Below, piece by piece: positions 37,620 through 54,074 of a stretch of 64,000 bases of DNA. Numbering within the stretch: the first letter of the stretch is position 1; each line of letters opens with the position of its first letter. Under the pieces are notes generated by a model. It did no database searches. It saw only the letters and a list, made by a program, of their open reading frames with translations, and was not told the origin of the DNA. The position numbers and the translations under genes were made by a program. Source of the stretch: an uncultured SAR86 cluster bacterium (lineage in GTDB: Bacteria; Pseudomonadota; Gammaproteobacteria; Magnimaribacterales; D2472); assembly GCA_902559885.1 (NCBI GenBank), contig CACEJU010000004.1:4526-68525 (forward strand), read 5' to 3'.

Positions 37620-38312
37620 ATGGCAGATAAAATTTTAATAATTGAAGATGAGCCAGATATTAGTAAGGCTCTTGAGTATAATCTAAAAAAAGAAGGTTAC
37701 GATACTTATACAAGCTTAAATCTAAAAGATGGTTTAGCAGCAGTTTATGAAAACAAAATTTCATTAATACTTTTAGACTTAATGCTACCAGATGGCTCCG
37801 GTCTTGATCTATGCAAAAAACTCAAATCAAATCCTGAATATGATTTTATTCCTATAATTATACTCACTGCAAAAGATGATGAAGTAGATAAAGTCGTTGG
37901 ATTTGAACTAGGTGCAGATGATTATGTTACAAAACCATTTAGTATTCGTGAGCTAATTCTTAGAATCAAAGCAGTTCTAAAAAGAAAAATAGATAAAAAA
38001 GATTTAGTAGAAGTAGAGCGACAATTTGGTGATCTAAGAATGGATATTGATTCTCACGAAGTGTTTGTAAATAATGAAGAGGTTTTTTTAACAGCTTTAG
38101 AGTTTAAGTTATTAAAACAGTTAGTTGATAGAAGAGGTAGGGTCCAATCTCGAGATCAATTACTTGCTGATGTATGGGGTTATAGCTCTGATGTTACTAC
38201 TAGAACAGTTGATACACACATCAAAAGACTTAGAGAAAAACTTGGTGTGATCGGAAAGTATGTTCAAACCATCAGAGGTGTGGGATACAAATTCTCAAGA
38301 ACGCCTGACTAG
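37620..38312 (+). CDS. phoB: OmpR/PhoB-family response regulator, probable PhoB
   Basis: LLDLMLP receiver Asp; GADDYVTKPFS; TRTVDTHIKRLREKLG winged helix; phosphate-gene neighbourhood and downstream Pho boxes. Confidence 0.8.
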   Translation: MADKILIIEDEPDISKALEYNLKKEGYDTYTSLNLKDGLAAVYENKISLILLDLMLPDGSGLDLCKKLKSNPEYDFIPIIILTAKDDEVDKVVGFELGADDYVTKPFSIRELILRIKAVLKRKIDKKDLVEVERQFGDLRMDIDSHEVFVNNEEVFLTALEFKLLKQLVDRRGRVQSRDQLLADVWGYSSDVTTRTVDTHIKRLREKLGVIGKYVQTIRGVGYKFSRTPD

Positions 38313-38313
38313 T

Positions 38314-40074
38314 ATGGGTGTGCGCTCAAGAATTTTTCTAACGATATTTTTATCATTATTTTTAAGTGTAATAGCTACTTATTTTATTACCGAAAGAGAT
38401 CTTAGAAGAGGTATTGAAAACCAACTCGTAAGTGAGTTAGAGAAAGAAGCCAATTTAATTGTAGAAAATATTGGTAATGTAAGCAGTTTTCAAAGCTTAG
38501 AAGAATCTGATGCAGCGGCTGATAACCTTGGCTCAATTATTGATTCAAGGGTTACTTTGATTTCAAACGAAGGAGAGGTCGTCGGAGATAGTAGTCTTAC
38601 AATACAAGAAATATCTCTTTTAGATAATCACCTAAATAGATCAGAAGTAATTGAAGCATTAAAAAATAATCGAGGCTGGTCATCAAGGTATTCAAATACC
38701 CTAGATTCAAACCTTTTGTATTTTGCTGTATTAGATGAAAATATTGAGGAACCAAATGTTATAAGGGTTGCTGTTCCTTTATCGTCTCTGGATAGTGCAC
38801 TATCCTCATTAGAGTTAGCTATTAGTTTATTGTTTATTGTAGTGTTTATTGTTTCAGTATTTGCTAGTTTCATTTCATCAAGAATTTTATACTCAAATAT
38901 TGAAGCTCTTGATAAAGCAGCTTCTAGAATTATCGATGGAGCTATTAAAAAGAAAGATATTAAAGCACTTCCCACACAAAGAGTTGATGAATTTGGTAAC
39001 GTAGCTAGAACCATTTCTCAAATATCAGCAGACCTAAAACAACGTATCCAAGATATTGCAAAACAAAGAGACCAATTTGGTAATGTTTTAAACGATTTGG
39101 GTGAGGGTATTTTAGTTGCTGACAATAATGAAAATATTTTTTATTCCAACGAACAAAGTCAAATTATCTTAGAGCTTCAAAAGCTAAATGGAAGAAAACT
39201 ACAATCACTAAATATCCCTGCAATTAATTATTTAACTGAAAGAGCAAAAGAAAAAAAGAAAGCTGATATTGAATTTGAAATTGAGTTAAAAGATAAAACA
39301 ACTAGATGGGTCTTAGGATCTATGAATAAATCAAAGTCCACTGGTGAATTTATTTTAGTACTTCATGACATTTCACAATTACGTCAATTGAATTCAATGA
39401 GGCGTGATTTTATATCAAACCTTTCTCATGAATTAAGAACCCCTGTAAGCGTTATTAGAGCTAATTCAGAGACTTTATTATCGGGTGCACTAGAAGATAA
39501 AAAAGAAGCTGCTGTTTTTGCTAAAGCAATTATGCATAACTCTGAAAGATTATCTGAAATGGTATCAGATCTAATTGATTTATCGAGGATTGAATATGGA
39601 GACTTAAAATTAAATATAAGATCAATAGATGTTAATCAAATTATAGAATCAATAGTTTTCTCTATGAAAAGTATCTTAAAAAGAAAAAACATATCTATTA
39701 AATTTGACCCTCATCAATCAAAAAGTATGGTCGAAGCTGATTTAAATGCCTTAGAGAGAATCATTAATAATTTTATTGATAATGCGTATAAATATTCACC
39801 TAAAAATTCATCAATAGAAATTACAACTGAAAGTCCAAACGATGATATTAAAATTAATATTATAGATGAGGGGGATGGAATTGCTCCTAAGGAAATGAAC
39901 TTGATCTTTGATAGATTTTTCAGAACAGCATCTGCTAGAGCATCTGAAAAGTCAGGAAGCGGGTTAGGTTTGGCTATAGTTAAAAATCTTGTAAATAGTC
40001 TCAATGGAAAAGTTGGAGTTGATTCTAATGAAAAGGGCTCAACTTTCTGGTTCACACTACCAAAATCTAAATAA
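38314..40074 (+). CDS. phoR: Sensor histidine kinase, PhoR-like (2 TM, periplasmic domain, HAMP, PAS, HisKA, HATPase)
   Basis: RRDFISNLSHELRTP H-box; NFIDNAYKY, DEGDGI and GSGLGLAIVK boxes. Start moved to ATG 38314. Confidence 0.8.
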   Translation: MGVRSRIFLTIFLSLFLSVIATYFITERDLRRGIENQLVSELEKEANLIVENIGNVSSFQSLEESDAAADNLGSIIDSRVTLISNEGEVVGDSSLTIQEISLLDNHLNRSEVIEALKNNRGWSSRYSNTLDSNLLYFAVLDENIEEPNVIRVAVPLSSLDSALSSLELAISLLFIVVFIVSVFASFISSRILYSNIEALDKAASRIIDGAIKKKDIKALPTQRVDEFGNVARTISQISADLKQRIQDIAKQRDQFGNVLNDLGEGILVADNNENIFYSNEQSQIILELQKLNGRKLQSLNIPAINYLTERAKEKKKADIEFEIELKDKTTRWVLGSMNKSKSTGEFILVLHDISQLRQLNSMRRDFISNLSHELRTPVSVIRANSETLLSGALEDKKEAAVFAKAIMHNSERLSEMVSDLIDLSRIEYGDLKLNIRSIDVNQIIESIVFSMKSILKRKNISIKFDPHQSKSMVEADLNALERIINNFIDNAYKYSPKNSSIEITTESPNDDIKINIIDEGDGIAPKEMNLIFDRFFRTASARASEKSGSGLGLAIVKNLVNSLNGKVGVDSNEKGSTFWFTLPKSK

Positions 40075-40127: not shown

Positions 40128-40167
40128 TTGTCACATAAATGTCACAATAATGTTTCATTTATGACAT
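40128..40167 (+). promoter_or_regulatory. Pho box (11-bp-periodic direct repeats)
   Basis: TTGTCAC (40128), ATGTCAC (40139), ATGTTTC (40150), ATGACAT (40161); compare the CTGTCAT-N4-CTGTCAC consensus. Confidence 0.75.
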
Positions 40168-40184: not shown

Positions 40185-40490
40185 ATGAAATATATTATGT
40201 CATTAGTAGCTTTAGCATTAGTAGCAACACATGTTGATGCGGATCATCATTTTCAATCTAAAAGTATTAAATCATTTTCAATTGATAATAATGGGGTTAT
40301 AACTTTAAATACCAGAGCATCATCTTTTCAAGCTGATTTGAATAATTGTTCTATGAGCAAATTAAAGCAATTAGAGAATGTAAGTATATATACGCACTCT
40401 GCTTTAGTTAAAGAAAATACTAAAGTAAGCTTTTTATCAAACTCAGGTACTATGACTGGTTGCAAGGTTAATAATATTGTAAAGCTATAA
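40185..40490 (+). CDS. Small secreted protein with two Cys, function unknown
   Basis: GGAGG at 40175-40179 before ATG 40185; signal peptide MKYIMSLVALALVATHVDA; beta-rich mature part. Confidence 0.78.
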   Translation: MKYIMSLVALALVATHVDADHHFQSKSIKSFSIDNNGVITLNTRASSFQADLNNCSMSKLKQLENVSIYTHSALVKENTKVSFLSNSGTMTGCKVNNIVKL

Positions 40491-40510: not shown

Positions 40511-40535
40511 AAAGGCCAGCTACTAGCTGGCCTTT
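40511..40535. terminator. Intrinsic terminator-like hairpin
   Basis: AAAGGCCAGCTA-C-TAGCTGGCCTTT perfect inverted repeat after the small secreted gene. Confidence 0.75.
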
Positions 40536-40606
40536 GCATATATGTAACATAAATTACATATATTCTTTTCTTAAATTTCATTAACTTGTTGCGCAATTAT
40601 TACGAT

Positions 40607-40635
40607 TTGTAACATTAATCACACAATTTTTTCAT
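40607..40635 (+). promoter_or_regulatory. Degenerate Pho-box-like repeats upstream of the large lipoprotein
   Basis: TTGTAAC (40607), ATCACAC (40618), TTTTCAT (40629) at 11-bp spacing; weak in an AT-rich background. Confidence 0.4.
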
Positions 40636-40682
40636 TTTAACTCTATTAAATATAGTCATTAAATCTATTAGAGGAGAATTTA

Positions 40683-43616
40683 ATGTCTAATAACATAAAA
40701 TCATTAACTATATTACTATCATCATTATTTCTATTTGCTTGTGGTGGTGGCAGCTCATCAATCGCATCACCAGGAGAGGCAGGACCGCTTTCTGATCCAA
40801 CTGGAACAGGAGGAACTGGAGGTGCTTCAAGTTCTGTTTTAACTGGAACATGTCCAGAATCTCCATTTATAACTAATGGTTCACCTGTAGCGGGAAATAC
40901 TGTATGTGCAATTCAAGGCCCAGTGACAGCTGATCTTACTTTGACAGATGATGTTATGTACAGAATGCTTGGAAAAGTTGATATCGGTATTGATATGGGT
41001 ACTGATGGTACAAAAGAGGGCGGTGTTTCTGCTTCATTAACTATACCAGCTGGTGTAGTGATAATGGGTAAGGTTTCTGATGATTATTTAGTGGTTAATA
41101 GAGGGTCTAAAATTATTGCAAATGGAACTAGGTCAAAACCAATAAGATTTACCCATAATACAGCTATAGAAGGGACTGTAGGTGATCTTGAAAGAGGTTT
41201 ATGGGGTGGAATTGTTATCCTTGGGCAAGCACCAATAAACAAGTGCACTTATGATAATGGTGTTAGACAAATACCTTGTGAAAGAGTTGTTGAAGGGTCA
41301 AATGCTTTAATGGGTGGAGAAAACCCATCTGATAATTCAGGCGTTCTTAATTTTGTAAGAGTCGAATATGCTGGATATGAGATATTTCCTGGTAATGAGC
41401 TTAACGGTATCACTTTTGGAGCAGTTGGCTCAGGTACCCAAGTTGATTATATTCAAGTTCATAACAACATGGATGATTGTGTGGAGTTTTTTGGCGGCAC
41501 AGTAAATGTAAAGCATTTAGTATGTACAAATGCGGGTGACGATAATCTTGATATTGATTGGGGTTATCAGGGTAAAATTCAATTTGTAGTCGTTAAGCAA
41601 AGCTCTGATAAATCAGATCATGTCGTAGAGTCTGATAACGTTAATTCAGATACAACTGTAGGTTACTTAACAGAACCAAGATCTAGACCTATGGTAGCTA
41701 ATTTTACATTTTTAGCTCAAGGTGCTGATGAGCCAATGAAGTTAAAAGAAGGTGTTTCTGGAATTTATTTAAATGGTGTTATAAAAACAAAAAATCCTGC
41801 CAATATATTTGAGTCTACTTATATAGAAACAATTCAAGATGGTGCAGATACCGATAAAATCCAGATGCATTCCATACTCGCAGATAATTCAGGAAATGCA
41901 TCAGTGTTTAAAGCAGGAGATGATTCGCATACAAATGCTGAATTAGAGGCTTCAATTCTTGAAAGAGCTACTCAATTGAAGATTGCCAATAGTACCCTTG
42001 TTGGCGAATATTTTCTAGGTGAAGCTGAATCATCAGTTCCTTCAGCATTTAGTATTGGGCAGGTTCCTGCTATTTGTGCAGTTGGAACACATCCAGCAGG
42101 AACTCCAACAGATTTATGTCCTAGTGTTGATGAAGACGATGGAGACCTTTTGTATGCTGTAAATACATGGTTTTCAGCAACTGATTATATTGGAGCTTTT
42201 TCACCAGGATCTGATTTAGAGAACAACTGGGCTGCAGGTTGGACATTAGGTTTATTTAGTGAGCCAGGCTGTCCAGATGGAACGCTTGAATCAGAAATAC
42301 TCCTTGGTAAAAAAGTATGTAGCCTTCAAGGAGCTATAGAAGATGATATAACTTTAACATCAGGTAATTACTATAAGTTAGATGGAAAAGTCGCAATTGG
42401 TATTGATGTTGGTGCCTCTGGTGACGCATCAGGTGGAAAAGCAGCAACATTAACTATTGAGCCTGGGGTAACGGTTTTCGGAGAATCTGGTAATGACTAT
42501 TTGGTTATTAATAGAGGTTCTAAAATAAATGCTGTAGGCACCGTTTCTGCCCCGATAATTATGACTGGAAGAGCAGATATCCTTGGTCAAGCTGATATTG
42601 TAACAACTCGAGGTTTATGGGGTGGTTTAGTAATACTTGGCAGATCACCTATTAATAAGTGTAGCTATGTTTCATCAGGAACTAGAGTAGATCCATGTGA
42701 AAGGGAAGTAGAAGGTTCAGCTGGTGACACTATGGGTGGCGAAGTACCAGATGACAATAGCGGAACAATAAAATATTTAAGAGTTCAATATGCTGGATAT
42801 GAAGTATTTCCAGGTAATGAATTAAATGGAATTACATTTGGTGGTGTAGGCTCTGGTACAACCGTAGACTATGTTCAGGTTCATAATAATGCTGATGATT
42901 GTGTTGAATTTTTTGGCGGAACAGTTGATGTAAAACACCTCATATGTACTGGTGCTGATGATGATAATCTTGATATTGATTGGGGTTATACAGGAAGATT
43001 ACAGTATGTGATTGTTCAACAATCTAACGATAAAGGTGATCATATTGTTGAGTCAGATAATACAAATGCTGATGCCACTGTTGGTTATTTAACTGAACCT
43101 AGATCTAATCCAATTGTGTCTAATTTTACTTTTATTAGTAAAGGCCATGATGACATTTTTAAATTGAAAGAGGGTGTATCAGGACAATACTATAATGGTA
43201 TCGCTGTTGTGAAAAACAATGTAACTGGTAAAAATACTAATTGCATTGAAACAACAAAAGCTGAAACAGTTTTAGCAGGAGCAAAAACAGGAACATTTTC
43301 AATGAATAGTGTTGCTATGGACTGTCCTGGATATATTAAAACCAATGACGGTGTTGAAATAGCAACAGTAGATGCAATTGTTAAAGCAGGTATCAATAAC
43401 TTATATGCACCTACTTCAGGTGGCGGTACTTATGCTAATACTTTATCAGGAATTGTAAACGGCTCAGCTGAATCAGCAGCTATAGCCACTGAAGTTCCTG
43501 TTATCTACAACACAGATGGTTTCTTTGATACAACTTCATATATTGGAGCTGTAAGCGGATCAACTGATACATGGTATAAAAATTGGACTTTGTCAGGAAC
43601 TATTGAGGTTCAGTAA
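40683..43616 (+). CDS. Large lipoprotein with two tandem homologous beta-helix-like modules (ElpS-like)
   Basis: Lipobox LFAC followed by a Gly/Ser/Thr linker with IASPG; each half carries DNSG...YAGYExFPGNELNGITFG...DDCVEFFGG...DDNLDIDWGY; GAGGAG RBS. Confidence 0.8.
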   Translation: MSNNIKSLTILLSSLFLFACGGGSSSIASPGEAGPLSDPTGTGGTGGASSSVLTGTCPESPFITNGSPVAGNTVCAIQGPVTADLTLTDDVMYRMLGKVDIGIDMGTDGTKEGGVSASLTIPAGVVIMGKVSDDYLVVNRGSKIIANGTRSKPIRFTHNTAIEGTVGDLERGLWGGIVILGQAPINKCTYDNGVRQIPCERVVEGSNALMGGENPSDNSGVLNFVRVEYAGYEIFPGNELNGITFGAVGSGTQVDYIQVHNNMDDCVEFFGGTVNVKHLVCTNAGDDNLDIDWGYQGKIQFVVVKQSSDKSDHVVESDNVNSDTTVGYLTEPRSRPMVANFTFLAQGADEPMKLKEGVSGIYLNGVIKTKNPANIFESTYIETIQDGADTDKIQMHSILADNSGNASVFKAGDDSHTNAELEASILERATQLKIANSTLVGEYFLGEAESSVPSAFSIGQVPAICAVGTHPAGTPTDLCPSVDEDDGDLLYAVNTWFSATDYIGAFSPGSDLENNWAAGWTLGLFSEPGCPDGTLESEILLGKKVCSLQGAIEDDITLTSGNYYKLDGKVAIGIDVGASGDASGGKAATLTIEPGVTVFGESGNDYLVINRGSKINAVGTVSAPIIMTGRADILGQADIVTTRGLWGGLVILGRSPINKCSYVSSGTRVDPCEREVEGSAGDTMGGEVPDDNSGTIKYLRVQYAGYEVFPGNELNGITFGGVGSGTTVDYVQVHNNADDCVEFFGGTVDVKHLICTGADDDNLDIDWGYTGRLQYVIVQQSNDKGDHIVESDNTNADATVGYLTEPRSNPIVSNFTFISKGHDDIFKLKEGVSGQYYNGIAVVKNNVTGKNTNCIETTKAETVLAGAKTGTFSMNSVAMDCPGYIKTNDGVEIATVDAIVKAGINNLYAPTSGGGTYANTLSGIVNGSAESAAIATEVPVIYNTDGFFDTTSYIGAVSGSTDTWYKNWTLSGTIEVQ
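40851..43590 (+). repeat. Intragenic tandem duplication (unit 1 ~40851-42245, unit 2 ~42270-43590)
   Basis: Collinear protein motifs from CP...VC to YIGA...W..WT in both halves; DNA stretch GATAATCTTGATATTGATTGGGGTTAT is present in both. Confidence 0.9.
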
Positions 43617-43641
43617 TTAATTAGATCAACTGGAGAAAGTA

Positions 43642-46287
43642 ATGATCATAGAAAACAATACAAAATTAATTCAAAAACTCATAAGAAATATCTCCTTGAT
43701 GTTCCTTCTTTTAATATTCTCTGTTGCTCTTCTTCAAGCTCAAGAAGTTGAAGAGGTTGTTGTTCAAGGAACATTTATTCCTGATGAGAAGCGAGATACA
43801 TCAGAGATATCAGCTATATTAGACTCATCAGAAATTGAAAGAACTGGTGATGATAATATAGCAGTTGCTCTTACAAGATTAACAGGTTTAAGCTTGGTAA
43901 GAGGTAAGTATGTTTATGTTAGGGGTCTAGGTGAAAGATATTCTGCTGCTACTCTTAATGGTCTAGGATTACCTAGTCCAGAGCCTTTAAAAAGAGTTGT
44001 GCCTTTAGATCTTTTCCCAACTCAAATTGTTGAATCATCAATAGTTCAAAAAACTTATTCTGCAGATATGCCTGGAGAGTTTGGTGGAGGTATTATTGAA
44101 ATTAATACAAAGGCTGTACCAGATGATAGAGTATTAAGCCTATCATTCTCAAGTGGTTTTAATAGCGCAGCATCATTAAAAGATGGTCTATTATATGAGG
44201 GTGGATCGGATGATGACTTTGGCTATGATGATGGAACAAGAAATATTCCAAACTTCATTCAAAATGCTATCAATCAAAATAAAAAATTAGATAGATCAAA
44301 TTTTACAACCTTTGAGCTTGCTAATGCTGGTAGAGAGTTTGAAAATTCAAATCTATGGGTTATTCAAGAAGGAAATATTCCTCTAGATTCCTCTGCAAAC
44401 CTTACATTCGGCAATCAAATAGATGCATCTAATTTTGAAGATATTTTTAATGCTTCAGGTTTATCAATGGGTTACATTGCTACTTTTGGTATCAGAAATT
44501 CTTGGGATCACAAAGAGGGAATTAGACAAACTGGTGATATTCAAGGACAAGGAGATGGAACATCCAACGTAATTATTTCAAATGATAAAACATTTAGAAG
44601 TACATCTAATGATGTCACAACTTATGGCATGGTAGTTTTAGGTGCAGAAACTGATGCAACTGAGATTAAATATACAGGATTAAAAATTCACAAAGGTTCA
44701 AAGGAAGCTCGTATTCTTGAGGGATACGATTCTAGTGATTCTGGTAATGTTAGAGAAGATTTTACTGAATTTTTTGAAAGAGAACTAACCAATCATCAGT
44801 TAAATTTTTCTACTTATTTTGACAATGGTATGACTTTAGAAATCAAAGGATCTACTGGAGAAGCATCAAGGAATGCACCTTACGAGAGAGTTGTTTTTTA
44901 TGAAGACACTAATGATCTTGGTTATTGGAGATATGATGTTAATACTGGAAGAAATCAAACACAATTTAGCTATGTAGAGGATGAAATAGACAATATTGGT
45001 ATTGATCTTCAAATACCATTAACGATTAGTGATACTGAAGTAGAGTTAAAATTTGGTTCTGAACTTAAAGAAAATTACAGAGAAGCTGAAGTAAGAAGTT
45101 TTAGATTTTTAGCTGAAGGTGGTCCAATACCTACTGAGGGATTAGATAATAGAATCGACTATATTTTTGCTGACAAAAATTTTGATCCATCAAGATTAAT
45201 AGTAATTGAAAATACAGCTGCATCATCACCAGCTGGTTATCTTGGTGACCTTAAAACAAAAGCATTTTATATTTCAGCAGATGCATATTTAAATGAAAAC
45301 TTTCGTTTAGCATTAGGTTTAAGAAATGAACATGGAGAACAATCCGTGAATACATATGATGTATTTCAGCCAAATGATGGTTCGATAGAAAGATTAATAG
45401 ATGAATCATACTCATTACCATCTTTTACCCTTACATACCTTCCAGATTTTGATGAAAATCTTCAATTGAGATTCGGTGTCTCAAAAACAATTGCAAGGCC
45501 TACATTCAGAGAATTATCACCAACATTATTCGTTGATGTGGATACAGATAGAGTAGTTGCAGGATCCTTGTACTTAGAAAATTCTGAAATTGATAATATA
45601 GATTTAAGACTTGAGTATTATTGGGGTTTCAATCAGTTTGCTACCATAGGTTTTTTTATTAAAGATATAGAAAAACCTATAGAAGAAGTTGTAAATGAAT
45701 CAGGCGACTTAGTGATCACATCATTTCAAAATGTTCCTGCCGCTGAGTTAAGAGGATTTGAGATAGAGTACGAAAGACTATTTGATAGCTTATTACCTAA
45801 CTTGAATTGGGCAAAAACAAAAGAATTTCTTATAAAAATGAATTTTACTCAAACAGAATCTGAAGTTGTGTACGCAGCAGATGATGTTTATATTAATTCA
45901 CAAGGCGCTCCTGTTCTTGCATCTAATCTTTTCTTAAATGGAAGAGACACAAGATTGCAAGGTCAATCAGATCAAATTGCCAATCTTCAGTTTGGTTATG
46001 ATGATTTGCAAAATGGATCAAGTGCAACATTAATAATTAATTATGTATCTGACAGAGTCAGAGCAAGAGGTATAGATGTTTTACCAGATGTTATAGAAGA
46101 GCCACCCTTGCTAGTTGATTTTGTTTATTCAAGAGATATATCATTTAGTAATAACGATATGTCTATTTCACTTGAGCTAAGAAATCTTTTAGATGAAGAA
46201 TATTATGCCGCAATGGCAAATACTGCTATCTATGATCAATACGACCTAGGTAGATCTATTTCGATTGGTTTTAAATTTAACTTTTAA
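43642..46287 (+). CDS. TonB-dependent receptor
   Basis: Signal peptide; EEVVVQG TonB box; plug motif YVYVRGLGERYS...PSPEP..RVVPLDLFP; C-terminal FKFNF. Confidence 0.95.
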   Translation: MIIENNTKLIQKLIRNISLMFLLLIFSVALLQAQEVEEVVVQGTFIPDEKRDTSEISAILDSSEIERTGDDNIAVALTRLTGLSLVRGKYVYVRGLGERYSAATLNGLGLPSPEPLKRVVPLDLFPTQIVESSIVQKTYSADMPGEFGGGIIEINTKAVPDDRVLSLSFSSGFNSAASLKDGLLYEGGSDDDFGYDDGTRNIPNFIQNAINQNKKLDRSNFTTFELANAGREFENSNLWVIQEGNIPLDSSANLTFGNQIDASNFEDIFNASGLSMGYIATFGIRNSWDHKEGIRQTGDIQGQGDGTSNVIISNDKTFRSTSNDVTTYGMVVLGAETDATEIKYTGLKIHKGSKEARILEGYDSSDSGNVREDFTEFFERELTNHQLNFSTYFDNGMTLEIKGSTGEASRNAPYERVVFYEDTNDLGYWRYDVNTGRNQTQFSYVEDEIDNIGIDLQIPLTISDTEVELKFGSELKENYREAEVRSFRFLAEGGPIPTEGLDNRIDYIFADKNFDPSRLIVIENTAASSPAGYLGDLKTKAFYISADAYLNENFRLALGLRNEHGEQSVNTYDVFQPNDGSIERLIDESYSLPSFTLTYLPDFDENLQLRFGVSKTIARPTFRELSPTLFVDVDTDRVVAGSLYLENSEIDNIDLRLEYYWGFNQFATIGFFIKDIEKPIEEVVNESGDLVITSFQNVPAAELRGFEIEYERLFDSLLPNLNWAKTKEFLIKMNFTQTESEVVYAADDVYINSQGAPVLASNLFLNGRDTRLQGQSDQIANLQFGYDDLQNGSSATLIINYVSDRVRARGIDVLPDVIEEPPLLVDFVYSRDISFSNNDMSISLELRNLLDEEYYAAMANTAIYDQYDLGRSISIGFKFNF

Positions 46288-46304
46288 TATCTATTTTTTA
46301 TAAT

Positions 46305-46332
46305 AAATGAGCTACACTAGTAGCTCATTTTT
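46305..46332 (+). terminator. Terminator-like hairpin directly before the gspC start
   Basis: AAATGAGCTAC-ACTA-GTAGCTCATTT followed by TT; gspC ATG at 46336. Confidence 0.7.
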
Positions 46333-46335
46333 ATT

Positions 46336-46746
46336 ATGCAAAATTTAAAATACTTAAAATATATTCTATTAATTCCATTGGTTATTATGGTGATATATTT
46401 TACCGTATCTTTATTTGCTATTAGCTCGCTTAATACTGATATAAAAAATGTAAAGAAGATTTCTTTTAATGAACAAATTCCTAGTAAAAACACCAATCAA
46501 TCAAATGCCCCTGAAATTAACAAACCTCAAGAAATTAGTAGTGCATTTAATTATAAATTAATTGGTTACTTGGCTGGATCAACCGATTCATCAATTATAT
46601 TAAAAAAAGGCTCAAATGAATTTTTAGTTAGAGTTGGTGAAGAAATTGATTCATATATTTTAGAAACTGTTACAAAAGATGAAGTAGTCTTTAGTTTACA
46701 AGGTAAGTTATATAAAATTGAAAATAACGTTGGTAAAAACAAATGA
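46336..46746 (+). CDS. gspC: Type II secretion protein C-like (short, no PDZ)
   Basis: N-terminal TM; HR-domain-like YKLIG...SIIL...VGEEI..Y.LE.V..DEVV; directly precedes gspD. Confidence 0.65.
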   Translation: MQNLKYLKYILLIPLVIMVIYFTVSLFAISSLNTDIKNVKKISFNEQIPSKNTNQSNAPEINKPQEISSAFNYKLIGYLAGSTDSSIILKKGSNEFLVRVGEEIDSYILETVTKDEVVFSLQGKLYKIENNVGKNK

Positions 46747-48584
46747 AAAACATAAAAAATAAATTATATTTTCTTCTGTTATTTTTTGTAACTGTAGAAC
46801 TTTATGCTCAAGAAACATTCATTTTAAATTATGAAGAAGTAGATATAAAAAAAGTTACTCAAGATATTGCACAATTTTCTAAAAAAACAATTATTTTAGA
46901 TCCTAGAGTTAAAGGAAAAATTTCAATATATTCAAATGCAACCTTAGATAGAGATCAGGTTTGGAATGTTTTTTTAAGAACAATACAGGTTAATGGTTTT
47001 AGCGCAATATCAGATAATGGTTTTGTGAGAATTGTTCCTGAGAATGAAGCAACAAGAGACCTAAACTTTGCATTAGATGAGAGGGCTGATTATGTAACTG
47101 AAATAATTGCTCTTAAAAATAGGGGTACTGACGAAGTTCTTCCTATGTTAAAACCTATTACCGGAAGACAATCTCATTTATCCAGCATTCCCTCTATCAA
47201 TTCACTATTAATAGTTGATAGATCAAGTAATGTTGAAAGAATAAAGGATCTATTGAAAGATCTTGATAGAAACAATACTGCTAAAATTTCTATCATTGAA
47301 CTCTCAAGATTATCAGCTACTGAGGCTGTTAGAATTCTTGATAGACTCAAGGCCCAAAACAACCCGGCTATCAATAAGTTCATAGCTATTCCATTCACTC
47401 CATCTAATTCAGTAATAGTTTCAGCAAATGATTACATTACAAATAATATTAGAGATACCCTTAAGCAGCTTGATGATGATGTTAAAACAGATAGCTCAAT
47501 AGAAGTTATCTATTTAAAGTTTGCTAAAGCTCAAGAGGTTGCCTCGATCTTAAGTTCAGTATCTAGCAGGTTTAAAAATTCAAATGAAAGAGATCAAACT
47601 GTTATTACTCATCATGAAAAGACCAATTCATTAGTAATTTCATCAGATCAAAATAATATTAATAATATTAAAAATTTAATCTCAAAGCTTGATATAAGAA
47701 GGGCGCAGGTTCTTGTTGAAGCAATAATTGTTGAGTTATCTGAAACAGCAGCAAATACTCTTGGTGTTGAAAGTGTTTTTTCAGGTGCCAATTCTGAAGA
47801 AATACCAATTGGAATGACAAGACTTAATAGTAGTGGTCCTGATTTAGTTTCAATTATTGGCTCAGCATCTGATGAAGATAATGCTGCACTTTCATCTAGC
47901 GCAGTTGCTTCCATATTAAACTCAAAAGGTTTGGTAGCTGGTATTGGTGATCTTACACCTGGTGAGGATAATTTTGCAGCAATTGTGAATGCAATTCAGG
48001 AAGATAAGAATTCAAATATCCTATCAAAACCTTCTATTCTAGCTATGGATAATGAGACTGCTAAATCTTCAGATGGTCAGGAAATCCCAGTTACAACTGG
48101 TGAAAGCTTAGGATCAAATAATCAAAATCCATTTAGAACTACTTCTAGGCAAGAAGTTGGTATTAGTTTAGAGGTAACTCCACAGATAAATGAAGGAAAC
48201 TCAGTTTTATTAGATATCAAGATAGAGGTATCAGGGGTTGCAGGAGTCGTTTCCTCAGGAGTTGATTTAATTACTAATAAAAGAACAATTGAAACTACAG
48301 CATTGGTTGAAAATAATGAGATTATGGTTCTTGGTGGTTTGATAGACGAAGATCTTCAAGAAAATGTAAATAAGGTACCTGTATTAGGCTCTATACCTAT
48401 ATTTGGAAAACTGTTCCAGAGCTCATCGGAGTCAGCAGTCAAAAGAAATCTAATGATTTTTATTAAACCTAGTATTATGACTGATGCAGAATCATCGGAA
48501 TTGATTTCATCAGAAAAATATAATTATATTAAAGCTGAGCAAATAATTAGCGGCAAAGAAAACTTGTTAGAAGAATTAGAATAA
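46743..48584 (+). CDS. gspD: Type II secretion secretin D
   Basis: IILDPRVKGKI, LDIRRAQVLVEAIIVE, LEVTPQINEG and KVPVLGSIPIFGKLF motifs. Confidence 0.95.
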   Translation: MKNIKNKLYFLLLFFVTVELYAQETFILNYEEVDIKKVTQDIAQFSKKTIILDPRVKGKISIYSNATLDRDQVWNVFLRTIQVNGFSAISDNGFVRIVPENEATRDLNFALDERADYVTEIIALKNRGTDEVLPMLKPITGRQSHLSSIPSINSLLIVDRSSNVERIKDLLKDLDRNNTAKISIIELSRLSATEAVRILDRLKAQNNPAINKFIAIPFTPSNSVIVSANDYITNNIRDTLKQLDDDVKTDSSIEVIYLKFAKAQEVASILSSVSSRFKNSNERDQTVITHHEKTNSLVISSDQNNINNIKNLISKLDIRRAQVLVEAIIVELSETAANTLGVESVFSGANSEEIPIGMTRLNSSGPDLVSIIGSASDEDNAALSSSAVASILNSKGLVAGIGDLTPGEDNFAAIVNAIQEDKNSNILSKPSILAMDNETAKSSDGQEIPVTTGESLGSNNQNPFRTTSRQEVGISLEVTPQINEGNSVLLDIKIEVSGVAGVVSSGVDLITNKRTIETTALVENNEIMVLGGLIDEDLQENVNKVPVLGSIPIFGKLFQSSSESAVKRNLMIFIKPSIMTDAESSELISSEKYNYIKAEQIISGKENLLEELE

Positions 48585-48592
48585 AGTTAGCT

Positions 48593-50086
48593 ATGTTAGA
48601 TTTTGAAAAAGCTACAAAACTTCTTCCCTATGAGTTTACTAAAGATAACAATATCATTGCTTTTCAAGATGATGATTTAATTGAAGTCTTGCACTGTGAA
48701 GAAATCAATATACAGCTTTATACTGAAATTAGAAGATATATAGGAACTTCATTCAAACTTACGAAGTTATCGCAAATAGAGTTTAATGACATACTAACAT
48801 CTAACTTTGCAGCTGATGAAGATCAAAATAATGATATTGCTGAAGAACTCGATGATGAATTTAATCTCGAAGAGTTTGCCGGTTCAATTAATGCTACAGA
48901 GGACCTCCTTAGCGGTAGCAATGATGCTCCTATCATAAAACTTATAAATGGAATTATAAGCAAAGCAATCAAATCTAGAGCTAGTGACATACATTTTGAG
49001 CCATACGAGGATCAGCTTATTGTTAGATATAGAGTAGATGGAATTATGCAACAAGTATTATCTCAAGAGAGTAAACTCTCATCTGTTTTAATATCTAGAA
49101 TTAAAATAATGTCTGGTTTGGATATTTCTGAAAGAAGGCTTCCACAAGATGGAAGGGTATCTTTATCATTAGGTGATAAAAGTATTGATGTAAGGGTTTC
49201 AACTTTACCTTCTTCATATGGTGAAAGAATTGTATTAAGAATACTAGATAAAAATACATCACAAATTAATATATCTGATCTTGGTTTTCCTGAATCTATT
49301 CTTAACTCTTATAAATCTTCTCTAAGAAATTCTGAGGGTATTATTTTAATTACAGGCCCAACAGGCTCAGGCAAAACAACTACCCTATATGCAGGTTTAA
49401 GATCTCTAAGCGATTCTTCTCAGAACATCCTTACCGTTGAAGATCCTATTGAATATACATTAAAGGGAATTGGTCAAACACAAGTAAATGATAAGACTGG
49501 ATATACTTTTGCTAGAGGTCTTAGAGCAATATTAAGGCAAGACCCTGATGTGGTTATGGTCGGAGAGATGAGAGATATTGAAACAGCTGAAATAGGAATT
49601 CAGGCTAGCTTAACTGGGCATTTAGTCCTATCAACTGTGCATACTAATTCAGCCATAGCTGCTATAACTAGATTGAGAGACATGGGAATTGAGTCATTCT
49701 TGCTTTCCTCAAGTCTTAAAACGATTATTTCGCAAAGATTAGTAAGAAGGTTGTGCAACCAATGTAAAACAAAAACAAAAACAGATGCAGATATTTCCTC
49801 ATCCTTTCATATACCAATAGATAAAGACATATACAAAGCAAATGGTTGTGAGCATTGTAATATGACAGGGTATCAAGGCAGAATCGCAATATCTGAATGT
49901 GTGGAAGTTGATAAAAAATTGAAAGATCTTATTCATAATAACGCTTCTGAAAATGAAATGAATGAGTATGTTTTTAAAAATACTAAATCCATCGATCAGG
50001 TTTCTATTGAATTAGTATTAAATGGAACTACTTCAATTGAAGAATTAATTAGAATTAATAATATCAAGGATAATGGCGACTTATAG
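48593..50086 (+). CDS. gspE: Type II secretion ATPase E
   Basis: ASDIHFEP, GPTGSGKTTTLY, LRQDPDVVMVGEMRD and CxxC...CxxC motifs. Confidence 0.96.
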   Translation: MLDFEKATKLLPYEFTKDNNIIAFQDDDLIEVLHCEEINIQLYTEIRRYIGTSFKLTKLSQIEFNDILTSNFAADEDQNNDIAEELDDEFNLEEFAGSINATEDLLSGSNDAPIIKLINGIISKAIKSRASDIHFEPYEDQLIVRYRVDGIMQQVLSQESKLSSVLISRIKIMSGLDISERRLPQDGRVSLSLGDKSIDVRVSTLPSSYGERIVLRILDKNTSQINISDLGFPESILNSYKSSLRNSEGIILITGPTGSGKTTTLYAGLRSLSDSSQNILTVEDPIEYTLKGIGQTQVNDKTGYTFARGLRAILRQDPDVVMVGEMRDIETAEIGIQASLTGHLVLSTVHTNSAIAAITRLRDMGIESFLLSSSLKTIISQRLVRRLCNQCKTKTKTDADISSSFHIPIDKDIYKANGCEHCNMTGYQGRIAISECVEVDKKLKDLIHNNASENEMNEYVFKNTKSIDQVSIELVLNGTTSIEELIRINNIKDNGDL

Positions 50087-51269
50087 TTATATTGCCTTTG
50101 ATGTAGATGGTAAAAAGAAAAAAGGCTTTGTATCAGCTCAAAGTGAAAAAATAGCAAGAGCAGAGTTAAAAAAGTTAAATCTCAAGGCTCATACTGTTAA
50201 AGAATCAAATAAAGATATTTCTAAAAACACCAAAATCAAAGAGAAAGATCTTTCAGTAGCTACTAGACAGCTTGCGACATTACTCGATGCTAATTTATCT
50301 ATTAATGATGCTCTAAAAATAACGGCAGATCAAATAAATAATAAAAAACTAGCAGAAGTATTTTATATACTTAGAGAAGAAATTATTCAGGGAAAACGAC
50401 TTGCTAGTTCAATGGCCAAGTTCCCAAACATTTTTTCAAGCACCTATATATCTTTAGTTGCCGCTGGTGATTCATCCGGTAATCTATCTAAGATTTTTAA
50501 TGATTTAGCAGAATACCTAGAAGACTCAATTGGCACAAGGCAAAAAATAATGAGTGCCTTAACATATCCAATAATACTTTTTTCTTTTTCTATATTGGTA
50601 ATAATTGGATTACTAATCTTTGTTTTACCTACTGTGGTTGATCAATTTACAAGGTCTGGAACAGAGTTACCCGCATTAACATCATTCTTATTGACAATTT
50701 CAAACAACATTTTTTTGATTATGGTCACAATATTTTTAATTGGTATTTCAATTTTTTTAGTTTATAAAAATTTCATTAGAAACCCTAAAAATCATATTTC
50801 TGCTCATTTAAAATTTTTAAAAATTCCATTGCTTGGAAAATTTTTGTTATATGTTCAGCTTGAAAGATATACGAAAACAATGTCATTACTTCTTGCATCA
50901 GGCTTAAATTTAGATAAAGCAATGATTGATGGTCAGGTAGTTGTTACAAATAAATATATTGAAGACACTCTTTCGGAGATAAAAAATAATGTTTTAGAAG
51001 GAAAGGATTTTGCTATTGCTATTCAAAAAGATGGTATCTTTCCTGATATTTTTAAACAACTTATCTCAAGCGGATATAGATCAGGAAATTTATCTAAAAT
51101 GTTTTTAAAAACATCTATATATTTAAAAAATGAAATTGAATCAAAGAGATCTATTTTTCTTTCTTTATTAGATCCTTTTGTGATAATTTTTATGGGTGGA
51201 TTTATAATGCTTATTGTTCTAGCTATACTTATCCCTATAATGCAAATGAACACTTTAACTTTAGGATAA
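50073..51269 (+). CDS. gspF: Type II secretion inner-membrane platform protein F
   Basis: TRQLATLL, ALTYP and IVLAILIPI motifs. Confidence 0.94.
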   Translation: MATYSYIAFDVDGKKKKGFVSAQSEKIARAELKKLNLKAHTVKESNKDISKNTKIKEKDLSVATRQLATLLDANLSINDALKITADQINNKKLAEVFYILREEIIQGKRLASSMAKFPNIFSSTYISLVAAGDSSGNLSKIFNDLAEYLEDSIGTRQKIMSALTYPIILFSFSILVIIGLLIFVLPTVVDQFTRSGTELPALTSFLLTISNNIFLIMVTIFLIGISIFLVYKNFIRNPKNHISAHLKFLKIPLLGKFLLYVQLERYTKTMSLLLASGLNLDKAMIDGQVVVTNKYIEDTLSEIKNNVLEGKDFAIAIQKDGIFPDIFKQLISSGYRSGNLSKMFLKTSIYLKNEIESKRSIFLSLLDPFVIIFMGGFIMLIVLAILIPIMQMNTLTLG

Positions 51270-51700
51270 TGAAAAATAAAAAAAATAAAGGATTTAGCTT
51301 AATTGAATTGATGGCAGTTGTTGTAATAATAGGTATCTTAGCTTCTATAGTTGTTGTTAATGTTGCTCCAATATTTCAAAGAGCGTACCTTGAAAAAATT
51401 AGAGCTGATATAACTCAAGTTTCAAAAGCCCTTGAGTTATATAGATTCAATGAGATGACATACCCTTCAACAGACCAAGGCCTTGATGCTCTTGTGAAGC
51501 CTCATACTGATTTAAAGAATCCCTTTTTATTTCCAGAAAATGGTTACATCTCCTCATTGCCATTAGATCCATGGGGAAGACAATATATCTATGAATATCC
51601 TCCAAATAAATCTAATTCCTATGATTTATATACATTGGGCGCAGATGGTATAGAAGGTGGCACAGGTGAAAATACCGATTTTGGTAACTGGATGCAATAA
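51269..51700 (+). CDS. gspG: Major pseudopilin G
   Basis: KGFSLIELM prepilin site; YPSTDQGLDALV, DPWGRQY and GADG motifs. Confidence 0.95.
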   Translation: MKNKKNKGFSLIELMAVVVIIGILASIVVVNVAPIFQRAYLEKIRADITQVSKALELYRFNEMTYPSTDQGLDALVKPHTDLKNPFLFPENGYISSLPLDPWGRQYIYEYPPNKSNSYDLYTLGADGIEGGTGENTDFGNWMQ

Positions 51701-52187
51701 GCTCAACAAGGGTTTTACTTTAATTGAGCTTCTGGTCTCAATAATTATTATTGGACTTATATCATCAATAGTTTTTATTAATTTTTCAGTTGTAGATTCT
51801 TTTGAAAAAAATACAAACTCTTTGAAATCTTCATTTAATTATTTATCGGAAGAGAGTATGTTATCTGGCTCTATGATTGGTTGGTATGCAAATAATAAAT
51901 CAGCAAAAGCTTTTTACTTAACAAACTCAGGAGATAGAATTGTTGAAAGAAATTTATATTTGCCAAAATCTAATTGGGACAATTGGGAAAATGATAAAAA
52001 AATTTTTATTTCACCTGAGGGTATCGAAACTATTATTGAAAATGAGTTTGTTCCAAAACCATACTTAATTTTTTTTCCAGACGGTCAAAACTCAGGCGGG
52101 GTATTAAATATCGAATTTGATTCTGAGTTATATACAATTCAAATTGATAAAAATGGAACTATTAAAACAAAATATGAAAGATACTAA
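51657..52187 (+). CDS. gspH: Minor pseudopilin H
   Basis: KGFTLIELL prepilin site; FFPDG; position in cluster; start codon uncertain. Confidence 0.8.
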   Translation: MAQVKIPILVTGCNKLNKGFTLIELLVSIIIIGLISSIVFINFSVVDSFEKNTNSLKSSFNYLSEESMLSGSMIGWYANNKSAKAFYLTNSGDRIVERNLYLPKSNWDNWENDKKIFISPEGIETIIENEFVPKPYLIFFPDGQNSGGVLNIEFDSELYTIQIDKNGTIKTKYERY

Positions 52188-52530
52188 TGGCTTTAGCTTA
52201 ATAGAAGTAGTTGTTGCTTTGTTGATATTTTCTTTATCAGTTATAACAATTTATCAACTTATAACCTCAACAAGCATATCAATTTTTAATCTTGAAGATC
52301 GATTTCTAGCAAAGGAGGTAGCAAACAATAGAATCTCTCTCATTAACACTATAGAAAAACCTATAAATAAACAGCCAAGAAACGGTGTTATGAACATGGG
52401 GGGCAAAAATTGGTATTGGAAAGAAGAGTTTACTTCATCATATTCTGCAGAGGTTTTTGAATTTGAAATTATTATTAGCGATTCACAAAGCAAGCCAATA
52501 TATAAAGTGAATGGATATATAAATGAATAA
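52174..52530 (+). CDS. gspI: Minor pseudopilin I
   Basis: NGFSLIEVVVAL; MGGKNWYW. Start moved to ATG 52174; 52153 is an alternative. Confidence 0.87.
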   Translation: MKDTNGFSLIEVVVALLIFSLSVITIYQLITSTSISIFNLEDRFLAKEVANNRISLINTIEKPINKQPRNGVMNMGGKNWYWKEEFTSSYSAEVFEFEIIISDSQSKPIYKVNGYINE

Positions 52531-53116
52531 AGGCTTTACATTAATTGAGATAATAATTTCATTAATTATTTTATCTATAATACTTTTAATATCATCAAAC
52601 TTACTCAAATCATCTATCAACTATCAAGAGGCTACAAATTTAAAACTAAAAAAAATCAATGAATTAAATTTAGCTTCGACTATTATTAGAAGAGATTTAA
52701 GACAAGCAGTAAATGTTCCTAGTAGAGATTTTTTTGGAAACAAAGAGAAGGGAACTTTTAATGGGGATTATGCAAATAAGAGCGTTTCATTTAATTCATA
52801 TATAAACGATATTTCAATTAATACCTCTCCAATAAAAAAAATATTATATTTTTCAGATGATAATACTCTTTATAGGAGACAGTATTTTTCTTCCAGCCCA
52901 TATAAAACTGACGATTATTTTGAATCAGCACTTATTAGTAATGTTTCTGATGTCACTTTTACCTATATGCATGAGAGAAGATGGCATAATTCGTGGCCCG
53001 TAGGAGAGATTACATCAAGAAAAATACCATCATTGGTTAGAGTTGATTTTAAAATCAATAATAATGACTATTACTGGTTAATTGAACCAGATATTAATAA
53101 TGTATATCAGCAATAA
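52523..53116 (+). CDS. gspJ: Minor pseudopilin J
   Basis: KGFTLIEII; RRDLRQAV; WHNSWP. Confidence 0.87.
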   Translation: MNKGFTLIEIIISLIILSIILLISSNLLKSSINYQEATNLKLKKINELNLASTIIRRDLRQAVNVPSRDFFGNKEKGTFNGDYANKSVSFNSYINDISINTSPIKKILYFSDDNTLYRRQYFSSSPYKTDDYFESALISNVSDVTFTYMHERRWHNSWPVGEITSRKIPSLVRVDFKINNNDYYWLIEPDINNVYQQ

Positions 53117-54074
53117 AAATAAAGGAGTGGTTTTATTATCAGTTCTGATGGTAATTTTACTGTTATCATCAATTGCAGCATACCTTGGTAATAAATATTT
53201 TATTTCGCTTAAAAGATTTGCCTATTTAGAATATCAAACTCATGCTATCAATTATTATAGAGGCGTAGAATCAATCTCAATAAATAGGATAAAAGAAGAA
53301 ATTGATGCTAATAAAAAATATTTACCTAGAAACCATCCTCTTTTAAATGATACATTTTCTTATGAAGCTAATAATGGCTTTATAAAAACTACTGTTAAAG
53401 ATATCTCAAATTGTATCAATGTTAATAGCTTAGTAAGATTAGAAAACAATCAATTAAAAGATAATTCCGAAAACATTAAAAGAGTTAAAAAGCTATTTGA
53501 TTTATTAGAAATTGATGAAATTTATGCAAATGAATTTATAGATCAGGCCATTGATTGGATTGATAAAGATTCAGACCCAAGACCATATGGTCTCGAGGAC
53601 TATTACTACACAGGACCTCTAGTTAATCCAAAGCATTATTCAGGCATGAGGTATTTTTATGATCTAAATGAGTTGAAGTCGCTCCCTGTTTCACGAATTA
53701 TTGGTTGGAATCATATAGTAGAAAACTTTTGTGCTCTACCTATAACTGAGAGGTCTTACATAAATATAAATACTTTTAAAAAAGGTGAGGGCATCATGCT
53801 TGCTTCGGCTTTTGAGGAATTAAGTATAGATGATGCTGAATATGTAATATTTAATATGCCTGAGGAGGGCTTTGATGAATTAAATACATTTTTTAATAAT
53901 TTTTCAAATATTGATTTTGGTGATGTTTATACTGATATAAATTTTTCTACAAATAAATTTTTATTAGTATCAGAGTTAATTACAGATGAGTTTAATTCAA
54001 AATCTCAAATAACAATTTACTATGGTAACAATAAGAATGGAGATATTCTTGCAAGAACATATAATGGTATTTAA
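53100..54074 (+). CDS. gspK: Minor pseudopilin K
   Basis: KGVVLLSVL (no Glu5); CINVNSL, IDWIDKD, CALP...ININT. Start moved to ATG 53100. Confidence 0.88.
   Translation: MYISNKNKGVVLLSVLMVILLLSSIAAYLGNKYFISLKRFAYLEYQTHAINYYRGVESISINRIKEEIDANKKYLPRNHPLLNDTFSYEANNGFIKTTVKDISNCINVNSLVRLENNQLKDNSENIKRVKKLFDLLEIDEIYANEFIDQAIDWIDKDSDPRPYGLEDYYYTGPLVNPKHYSGMRYFYDLNELKSLPVSRIIGWNHIVENFCALPITERSYININTFKKGEGIMLASAFEELSIDDAEYVIFNMPEEGFDELNTFFNNFSNIDFGDVYTDINFSTNKFLLVSELITDEFNSKSQITIYYGNNKNGDILARTYNGI

Follow-up and report, generated by a model that had tools for sequence, protein, structure and literature searches.

A two-module ElpS-type beta-helix lipoprotein encoded beside a TonB-dependent receptor and phosphate-control genes in a SAR86 bacterium

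ElpS (CC0170, CCNA_00169) of Caulobacter crescentus is a lipoprotein of ~50 kDa with an LAGC lipobox, made solely under phosphate starvation, exposed on the cell where proteinase K can reach it, and then released in a manner dependent on the bacterium's type II secretion system (T2SS) (Le Blastier 2010, PMC2996285). Its gene lies upstream of the receptor gene cc0171 and of gspC-N, in the order cc0170-cc0171-cc0172 onward (Le Blastier 2010), and an ElpS homologue beside a T2SS is reported for both Caulobacter and Xanthomonas (review; Le Blastier 2010). Homologues of the pair BT4055/BT4056 of Bacteroides thetaiotaomicron are neighbours in 621 genera, and the lipoprotein has been proposed as a non-SusD lid (Price 2023 preprint); the same preprint proposes both BT4056 and ElpS as lids of TonB-dependent transporters (TBDTs). 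Fjoh_0545/0546 of Flavobacterium johnsoniae are placed in a PhoBR operon and are reported among the genes most induced by the state of inorganic phosphate (Pi), with very strong induction on phosphate depletion (Lidbury 2021). Here we analyse a window of 64,000 nucleotides from an uncultured SAR86 cluster bacterium (assembly GCA_902559885.1, contig CACEJU010000004.1, positions 4,526 to 68,525; all coordinates below are those of the window), in which the open reading frame (ORF) 40683..43616 (+ strand) encodes an acidic lipoprotein of 977 residues composed of two collinear beta-helix modules.

Already in print are the family itself, the receptor that accompanies it, the neighbouring T2SS and the control by phosphate (Pho control). 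In the literature searched (SAR86 supplementary tables lay outside its scope) we found no account of multi-module architectures, of their repeated independent origin or of the SAR86 locus. As far as the portions consulted go, the SAR86 genome papers searched, Freel 2024 among them, name solely pit and, in a subset, Pst as means of phosphorus uptake and mention no secretion system.

The lipoprotein and its two modules

Every listed homologue of the lipoprotein, including one at 91% identity, carries the precomputed family label PF28492.1 (Beta_helix_4), and the nearest Atlas clusters (score 0.96) are 100% PF28492 Beta_helix_4. Pfam and NCBIfam scans of the lipoprotein itself returned 0 families at E<=0.01, PF28492 being newer than the Pfam release scanned. 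Each module aligns full-length with seven of seven Caulobacter-genus proteins (471-489 residues), if at merely 32-44% identity (E 1e-66 to 1e-90), and four of these seven carry the LAGC lipobox reported for ElpS. Phenylobacterium, Caulobacter, Brevundimonas, Asticcacaulis, Sphingomonas, Luteimonas and Xanthomonas have single-module lipoproteins of 470-530 residues that are 36-44% identical. The gene order is also that published for elpS, with the lipoprotein gene followed after 25 nt by a receptor gene and then by gspC onward, and both loci are linked to phosphate starvation control, the SAR86 one through a Pho-box-like repeat and a PhoB/PhoR-like pair upstream. This evidence places the SAR86 lipoprotein in the ElpS/BT4056/Fjoh_0546 family. 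The link to ElpS, which a preliminary description of this DNA had proposed, runs through genus-level homologues, the family label and synteny, CC0170 itself standing outside the alignment; that to BT4056 and Fjoh_0546, which are single-module proteins using the Bacteroidota lipoprotein export route, rests on published papers rather than on alignment. ElpS has one module (~50 kDa) whereas the SAR86 protein has two, and the SAR86 T2SS operon, unlike the elpS locus, is without adjacent gspN or gspO. Induction, surface exposure and release have been demonstrated for ElpS, whereas the SAR86 protein is known from sequence.

Residues 1-20 (MSNNIKSLTILLSSLFLFAC20; 40683..40742, + strand) form a predicted lipoprotein signal peptide that ends in the lipobox L-F-A-C20 (LFAC, Cys20), and homologues have [ILV]-x-[AS]-C at the equivalent place. 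The residue at +1 after the lipobox Cys is Gly, not Asp. A flexible Gly/Ser/Thr/Pro tether of ~30 residues follows (residues 21-50; 40743..40832, + strand); in the AlphaFold2 (AF2) model the predicted local distance difference test (pLDDT) score is 26-40 over residues 1-50. The tether carries a family-wide C-G-G...[IV]ASPGE stretch, in which the S, P and G of ASPGE are nearly invariant across 64 sequences, and ElpS shares the succession of N-terminal lipobox and C-G-G...ASPGE. Written as C-G-G-x(2-4)-[IV]-A-S-P-G-E after the lipidated Cys (40740-40790, residues 20-36), the stretch is near-invariant from SAR86 to Caulobacter and Sphingomonas and could be a sorting, surface-export or processing signal. 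CGGG is quoted as an atypical inner-membrane retention signal of Pseudomonas aeruginosa (Le Blastier 2010).

The rest of the protein consists of module 1 (residues 51-527; 40833..42263, + strand) and module 2 (residues 528-977 plus the stop codon; 42264..43616, + strand). The mature lipoprotein has an isoelectric point of 4.34 and 119 D+E against 57 K+R, in keeping with the acidic character first remarked on. Both halves of the translation hold the motif YAGYE[IV]FPGNELNGITFG, and both also hold QVHNN.DDCVEFFGG, DDNLDIDWGY, DH.VESDN, VGYLTEPRS and KLKEGVSG, which is the full set of motifs listed in the preliminary description. The paired cysteines listed there are likewise present, each module having eight in corresponding places (57/75, 188/199, 266/281 and 465/479 in module 1; 530/546, 660/672, 740/755 and 854/881 in module 2).

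Compared half against half, the modules share 204 of 356 aligned residues (57%; BLASTP E 2e-140), and the module cores are 62% identical in DNA over 346 aligned core codons. The 204 identical residues are encoded by the same codon in 105 cases and by a synonymous codon in 99, as expected from the earlier remark that codons diverge synonymously while motifs stay conserved. The proposed comparison of rates between the halves (Nei-Gojobori) gave 0.37 for non-synonymous change (dN) and 1.75 for synonymous change (dS; saturated, with a proportion of synonymous differences, pS, of 0.68), that is, a dN/dS of ~0.2. Since dS is saturated and dN/dS is ~0.2, both modules have long been maintained by selection, and both are under purifying selection.

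Tandem repeats can in principle be mis-assembled, and the duplication might be an artefact of assembly or annotation, or one module a decaying copy. We found no evidence for such a reading and consider it almost certainly wrong. The copies are merely 62% identical in DNA, and near-identical sequence (0.82-0.83 of sampled words) occurs in 14 DNA runs from at least eight studies. The module junction at ~42263 is crossed by a DNA contig of 4956 bases from run X1 (40953-45908, 19 differences) and, independently, by an RNA-library contig of 687 bases from run X16 (41718-42404, 4 differences). Two-module orthologues of 955-1020 residues are present in many other SAR86 genomes, in three SAR86 families. 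Decay of one copy is further contradicted by dN/dS and by the retention of every invariant residue (see below) in both modules. The artefact and decaying-copy readings were rejected on these grounds, and the duplication described from the single contig stands.

Modelling supports the beta-helix that had been predicted from the sequence, in that each module is modelled as a right-handed parallel beta-helix. Module 1 reaches a pLDDT of 84.2 and a predicted template modelling (pTM) score of 0.86 (AF2, 64-sequence alignment), and the full-length model 88.0 and 0.73 (AF2, 46 two-module sequences), with residues 1-50 and 486-489 as the only weak regions. In a VIA-align comparison with 48,161 chains, module 1 matched the phage tailspike 5w6p (Z 22.7, root-mean-square deviation (rmsd) 3.4, 284 aligned residues), the AlgE4 epimerase and NosD (both Z 21), and entries of PL6, PL9, PL1 and GH28 (Z 18-20.5); module 2 (535-909) gave Z 22.2 against parallel beta-helix proteins. 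Over the comparisons of both modules, the PL6, PL9, PL1 and GH28 entries range over Z 18-21 with rmsd 3.4-4.7 and 250-320 residues. Foldseek against the PDB returned no match at E<=0.001 (best E>=7.5e-3), and all of its weak rows are parallel beta-helices. PDB sequence searches with the protein and with the 64-sequence profile yielded no match at E<=10, and by these searches the family has no solved structure.

Across 46 two-module proteins from many lineages, the residues D264, D265, E268, D286, D290, E316, N340 and N364 are invariant in module 1, and D738, D739, E742, D760, D764, E790, N814 and N838 in module 2. The set is the same in both modules, which substantiates the claim that acidic residues are conserved in both copies, and its acidic part reads D-D-x-x-E, D-x-x-x-D, E. 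The acidic groups are spaced by 22 and 26 residues, one rung each, and lie in or next to strands 267-270, 289-292 and 315-317 of the model. From this one-rung spacing the three groups should form one stripe on one face of the helix, across three successive rungs. Such a stripe may be a site for Ca or another metal.

Receptor partner, phosphate-control genes and secretion system

The gene that starts 25 nt 3' of the lipoprotein gene encodes a TonB-dependent receptor (TBDR) of 881 residues (43642..46287, + strand), with a signal peptide, an EEVVVQG TonB-box-like stretch, a Plug domain and a match to the TonB-Xanth-Caul model (TIGR01782, 205.7 bits). The lipoprotein and receptor genes are probably co-transcribed, and an RNA-library contig of run X18 (43203-44978) covers parts of both. 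We surveyed 76 homologous loci, the best tblastn matches of 615 in species-representative genomes and a biased sample. In 63 of the 76, a gene homologous to the TBDR begins on the same strand within 700 nt downstream; in 5 more it lies 3-6 kb away. The other 8 loci have none, and in 5 of them the sequence downstream extends for under 2.6 kb. A Pfam scan of the lipoprotein found no SusD-like domain at E<=0.01. The early suggestion of a non-SusD partner of the adjacent receptor is supported by this, by the tight linkage and by the joint deletion of the pair described below. A second TonB-Xanth-Caul receptor gene is present in the window just past pit (59391-61907, + strand; 488.9 bits, above cut-off), and it is syntenic in two further SAR86 loci (L094, L095).

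The arrangement resembles BT4055/BT4056 and Fjoh_0545/0546, each a TBDT with a pectin-lyase-fold lipoprotein, kept together in hundreds of genera; in F. johnsoniae, however, the TBDT gene precedes the lipoprotein gene. It would also resemble SusCD, where the gene of a surface lipoprotein thought to capture substrate stands beside that of a TonB-dependent transporter. Unlike SusD, which has a helical, tetratricopeptide repeat (TPR)-like fold, the SAR86 lipoprotein has no SusD domain and is modelled as an all-beta parallel helix, and the receptor is of the TonB-Xanth-Caul type rather than a SusC.

Upstream on the same strand are genes for a PhoB-like response regulator of the OmpR family (37620..38312, + strand; Response_reg and Trans_reg_C; TIGR02154 PhoB 239.8 bits, below the cut-off of 296) and for a PhoR/PnpS-like histidine kinase with a periplasmic sCache-like domain (38260..40074, + strand; HisKA, HATPase_c and sCache_like; PnpS 294 and PhoR 235 bits, both below cut-off). 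They are the sole strong PhoB-like and PhoR-like matches in the genome (1.09 Mb, 80% complete). The kinase may sense phosphate or another periplasmic signal directly, not through Pst. A Pho-box-like array, TGTCAC-N5-TGTCAC with two weaker repeats at 11-bp spacing (40129..40156, + strand), follows the kinase gene and stands upstream of a small ORF. It resembles the E. coli Pho-box consensus and holds a perfect TGTCA-N6-TGTCA that recurs nowhere else in the 64 kb, both strands considered (shuffle mean 0.095); the repeat is conserved in six of six related metagenome contigs.

The small ORF (40185..40490, + strand; GGAGG 6 nt before the ATG at 40185) encodes a putative secreted protein of 101 residues with a signal peptide and two Cys, and matched no Pfam or NCBIfam family. 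It is 87-96% identical in six metagenome contigs, with or without the lipoprotein-receptor cassette, and its dN/dS is 0.13-0.42 in the five contigs with enough synonymous change. A tblastn search gave no match at E<1e-6 in eight loci of other SAR86 genera or in four empty-site genomes, and the idea that the small ORF is a cassette member elsewhere in SAR86 was rejected on this result. A GC-rich hairpin follows (40514..40532, + strand as read from the sequence; the hairpin scan places it on the - strand) and marks the left edge of the deletion-prone cassette. Ahead of the lipoprotein gene is a candidate promoter (40608..40656, + strand), in which 11-bp-spaced repeats TGTAAC/TCACAC/TTTCAT, scoring below 9/10, overlap the -35 position and are followed by TATAGT. 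The promoter scan also places a site at 40629-40656, such sites being no more frequent than chance as a class. Stronger 11-bp-spaced TGTMAC-like repeats occur ~80-240 nt upstream of the orthologous gene in seven of eight other SAR86 loci. Lipoprotein and receptor are probably switched on by the neighbouring PhoB/PhoR-like system at low phosphate. Sequence of the locus is present in contigs of six RNA libraries, and parts of the locus that such contigs leave uncovered are uninformative.

Genes for an exopolyphosphatase (Ppx; 55604-56470; TIGR03706, 171 bits) and a polyphosphate kinase 2 (56470-57309; TIGR03707, 288 bits) lie together on the opposite strand (55604..57309, - strand). Neither product has a signal peptide and both are predicted to be cytoplasmic, and a periplasmic Ppx digesting imported polyphosphate was rejected for this reason. 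A PiT-type inorganic phosphate (or sulfate) permease gene follows (pit; 57417..58667, + strand; partial matches to PitA and CysP models). The genes ppx, ppk2 and pit accompany the lipoprotein-receptor pair in other SAR86 families too. We found neither PstS nor a PstB above cut-off in the genome (80% complete), which fits the report that Pst is limited to a subset of SAR86 (Freel 2024).

The neighbourhood in other taxa was surveyed through clusters of neighbouring proteins present in at least three of 70 loci, with 29 representatives annotated; clusters matching the T2SS, TBDR and lipoprotein genes of the window and long antisense ORFs were skipped. Canonical PhoR with PF11808 accompanies the pair in 22 loci and a PhoB-type regulator in 18, followed by PstS (11, as 6+5), a PstB-like ATPase (10), PstC/A (8) and Ppx (5); a TonB-ExbB-ExbD set also occurs. 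A constant phosphatase, phytase or nuclease neighbour that might reveal the ligand was rejected, none appearing in these clusters.

Downstream of the receptor, gspC, D, E, F, G, H, I, J and K and two ORFs at the places of gspL and gspM extend over 46336..55607 (+ strand). GspD (TIGR02517, 440 bits) and GspE (626 bits) are matched, as are GspF, G, H, I, J and K; the ORFs 54074-55168 and 55161-55607 have no family match and are assigned to gspL and gspM by position only. A terminator-like hairpin, an 11-pair stem followed by a T run (46305..46330, + strand), lies between the receptor gene and gspC at the right edge of the cassette, and a promoter-like site is placed at 46277-46304. Because the hairpin is kept in contigs in which the cassette site is empty, the T2SS is probably a separate transcription unit. 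gspD/gspE follow in 30 of the 76 homologous loci. Among 201 SAR86 genomes GspD occurs in 130; 62 have both GspD and the lipoprotein, 7 the lipoprotein only, 68 GspD only and 64 neither. The locus is like the Pho-regulated second T2SSs (Caulobacter Gsp, Xanthomonas Xcs and P. aeruginosa Hxc) in joining a T2SS cluster to phosphate scarcity. A T2SS dedicated to the lipoprotein was rejected, since of 132 SAR86 genomes that lack the lipoprotein 68 have GspD, and of 69 that possess it 7 do not.

An accessory cassette and repeated multiplication of modules

The lipoprotein and receptor genes form an accessory cassette that is gained or lost as a unit. A lipoprotein match at E<1e-20 was found in 69 of the 201 SAR86 genomes (81 matches minus 12 weak, N-terminal-only ones at E 1e-4 to 1e-6), about a third of those sampled. 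All four syntenic genomes of the same family that were examined (L098-L101) are without both genes; they keep GGT, two acyl-CoA ligases, the regulator, the kinase and gspC onward, with 84-370 nt between kinase and gspC. The six metagenome contigs that carry the small ORF have kinases 92-96% identical where that gene is present. One of them is occupied, with a lipoprotein 99.7% identical, and the other five are without the lipoprotein and nearly all of the receptor gene. What remains of the receptor 3' end is the last 35-40 nt in two contigs (L103, L105), ~90 nt in a third (L107) and 49 codons in a fourth (L104); in the fifth (L106) it is less than 20 nt, recognised mainly from sequence just past the receptor stop codon. 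These remnants of differing length show at least three independent deletions of the pair. A contig of run X1 joins 40535 to 46270 in an event of the same class, one side of the joint being 31 letters and weak alone. Both this joint and the empty-site contigs break just after the hairpin at 40514..40532.

The preliminary description treated the two-module form as special, which was overstated; across the family the number of modules ranges from one to eight. The survey of one- and two-module homologues that it proposed gave 45 genes with one module, 25 with two and 5 with three, and 1 split gene, in the 76 loci. The split gene, an ElpS homologue of Xanthomonas arboricola (L025:9530-11272), consists of ORFs of 308 and 255 residues, which may reflect a frameshift or mark a pseudogene. 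When 1.84 billion representatives were searched with a profile, 8256 proteins matched with E<=1e-3, of which 4174 reached E<=1e-30, and the top 150, ranked by summed score in a way that favours multi-module forms, include proteins with 3, 4, 5 and up to 8 matched stretches. Protein P0448 and others have four, five and up to eight matched modules (2813 residues). Multi-module forms are associated with genera that we take to be marine.

Two trees of individual modules were built, one with FastTree (129 rows) and one with IQ-TREE in quick mode under LG+G4 (93 rows, being 79 hand-picked of the 129 plus 14 new SAR86 modules). In both, modules cluster by protein or lineage and first modules do not form one group, and a single ancient duplication was rejected on both trees. 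On the IQ-TREE tree, counting well-supported branches, the label 'first of two' has to change 17 times or more. Duplications older than the split of species leave first modules in one clade and second modules in its sister clade, as seen in SAR86 families f1-f3, Rheinheimera/Arsukibacterium, Colwellia/Pseudoalteromonas/Aliiglaciecola and Oceanicaulis/Hyphobacterium. Continuous gene conversion was rejected on this ground. At least a dozen independent tandem duplications are the simpler reading of these trees. Within SAR86, families f1 and f2 and genus g12 of f3 share one common duplication (support 99-100), and family f4 has a separate duplication of its own. Genus g18 (L090, L091) has a single-module gene that lies in an equivalent phosphorus island (regulator, kinase, ppx, ppk2, pit, lipoprotein, receptor and T2SS). 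Its module clusters with Alteromonadales-type sequences and not with other SAR86 modules, which suggests replacement or separate acquisition.

Proposed role and alternatives

We propose, with moderate confidence, that the lipoprotein is Pho-regulated and acts at the cell surface as the receptor's partner in capturing a phosphorus compound. We infer its surface location, Pho induction, binding role, metal site and ligand as follows. The lipoprotein would be anchored in the outer membrane and exposed at the surface, its two beta-helix modules carried on the flexible tether of 30 residues. Phosphate scarcity would act through the PhoB/PhoR-like system to turn on the lipoprotein and the receptor. 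On the outside of the cell the lipoprotein would then bind a ligand that contains phosphorus and is in short supply, and pass it to the receptor, which would import it with TonB energy. Candidate ligands are Ca/Mg complexes of phosphate or of polyphosphate, and organophosphate anions. With the same Asp/Glu stripe in each module, the protein would offer two equivalent sites, possibly metal-mediated. The adjacent T2SS may place or release the lipoprotein, as reported for ElpS. Given that phoBR, pstSCAB and ppx are constant companions and that no hydrolase gene is linked, attractive if speculative cargoes are inorganic phosphate, pyrophosphate or polyphosphate.

Several observations weigh against this proposal. 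It is the small ORF, itself ending in a hairpin, that has the strongest Pho box in front of it, and the repeats just upstream of the lipoprotein gene are weak; contigs from RNA libraries cannot prove transcription. The genome is 80% complete, making the absence of Pst provisional. No phosphatase, phytase or nuclease gene that might point to the ligand is consistently linked in the neighbour survey. For the described relatives, the preprint on BT4055-BT4056 reports few high-confidence AlphaFold-Multimer contacts between the two proteins (Price 2023), and in C. crescentus deletion of elpS left secreted phosphatase activity unchanged and cc0171 was reported to be constitutive (Le Blastier 2010). 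The parallel beta-helix is, moreover, best known from polysaccharide lyases, hydrolases and epimerases, and the invariant Asp/Glu/His/Asn/Gln set suits a catalytic site as well as a metal site.

This fold, with its invariant acidic, His, Asn and Gln residues, makes an enzymatic role the main rival, although we judge it unlikely. The modules would then be a Pho-regulated depolymerase or phosphodiesterase, surface-bound or released, acting on polyphosphate, nucleic acid, a phosphoglycan or a polymer resembling teichoic acid; having a pair of modules would mean two active sites or processivity, and the receptor would import the fragments. Every structural neighbour in the range Z 17-23 is a carbohydrate-active enzyme with a beta-helix (PL6, PL9, PL1, GH28, AlgE epimerases), a tailspike depolymerase or NosD, and some PL6 lyases among the matches also have two beta-helix domains (7dmk, 5gkd). 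In each module the invariant residues occupy successive rungs, these exoproteins have been noted to resemble pectate lyases and polygalacturonases weakly (Lidbury 2021), and overexpression of ElpS raised phosphatase activity in culture supernatants (Le Blastier 2010). Against this, the shared fold comes with no detectable sequence relationship: Pfam, NCBIfam and PDB searches gave no match to enzyme families, and the Foldseek matches start at E>=7.5e-3, none reaching E<=1e-3. Purified and immunoprecipitated ElpS was inactive on p-nitrophenyl phosphate (pNPP), the only substrate described in that account (Le Blastier 2010). A pure binding partner would also be expected to show what is seen here, a strict association with a receptor and no periplasmic hydrolase linked to it. 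Le Blastier 2010 put forward another idea for ElpS, whose overexpression raised supernatant phosphatase although ElpS itself was inactive. On that idea the protein would activate a distinct secreted phosphatase or serve as its scaffold and would have no direct part in transport, the receptor being a neighbour for other reasons; the adjacent T2SS could export such an enzyme. We hold this to be very improbable on account of the receptor linkage. Among the neighbours the receptor alone is constant (63 of 76 loci), and it disappears along with the lipoprotein; across the 70 loci no phosphatase gene shows consistent linkage, and one of the seven lipoprotein-bearing SAR86 genomes that show no GspD is 97% complete.

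The capture proposal can be carried further, into a form that we regard as doubtful. ElpS-type beta-helices would be the capture arm of a TonB-powered import of Pi or polyphosphate, bound with Ca/Mg at the acidic stripe, and multiplication of modules (2 to 8) would reflect convergent selection for capture sites. If true, the cassette would be the high-affinity phosphorus gate of the Pst-poor, streamlined SAR86, module multiplication in mainly marine lineages would place more capture sites on each transporter in dilute seawater, and the repeated deletion of the cassette in relatives would track the local phosphate supply.

The ElpS-type family comprises more than 8000 clusters at 50% identity and adjoins phoBR and pstSCAB in many bacteria. 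The invariant acidic stripe together with the repeated multiplication of the module could make its function testable, since the stripe singles out exact residues for mutation and nature supplies variants with one, two and three modules for comparison. For SAR86, the locus points to a Pho-controlled, TonB-dependent route for phosphorus.

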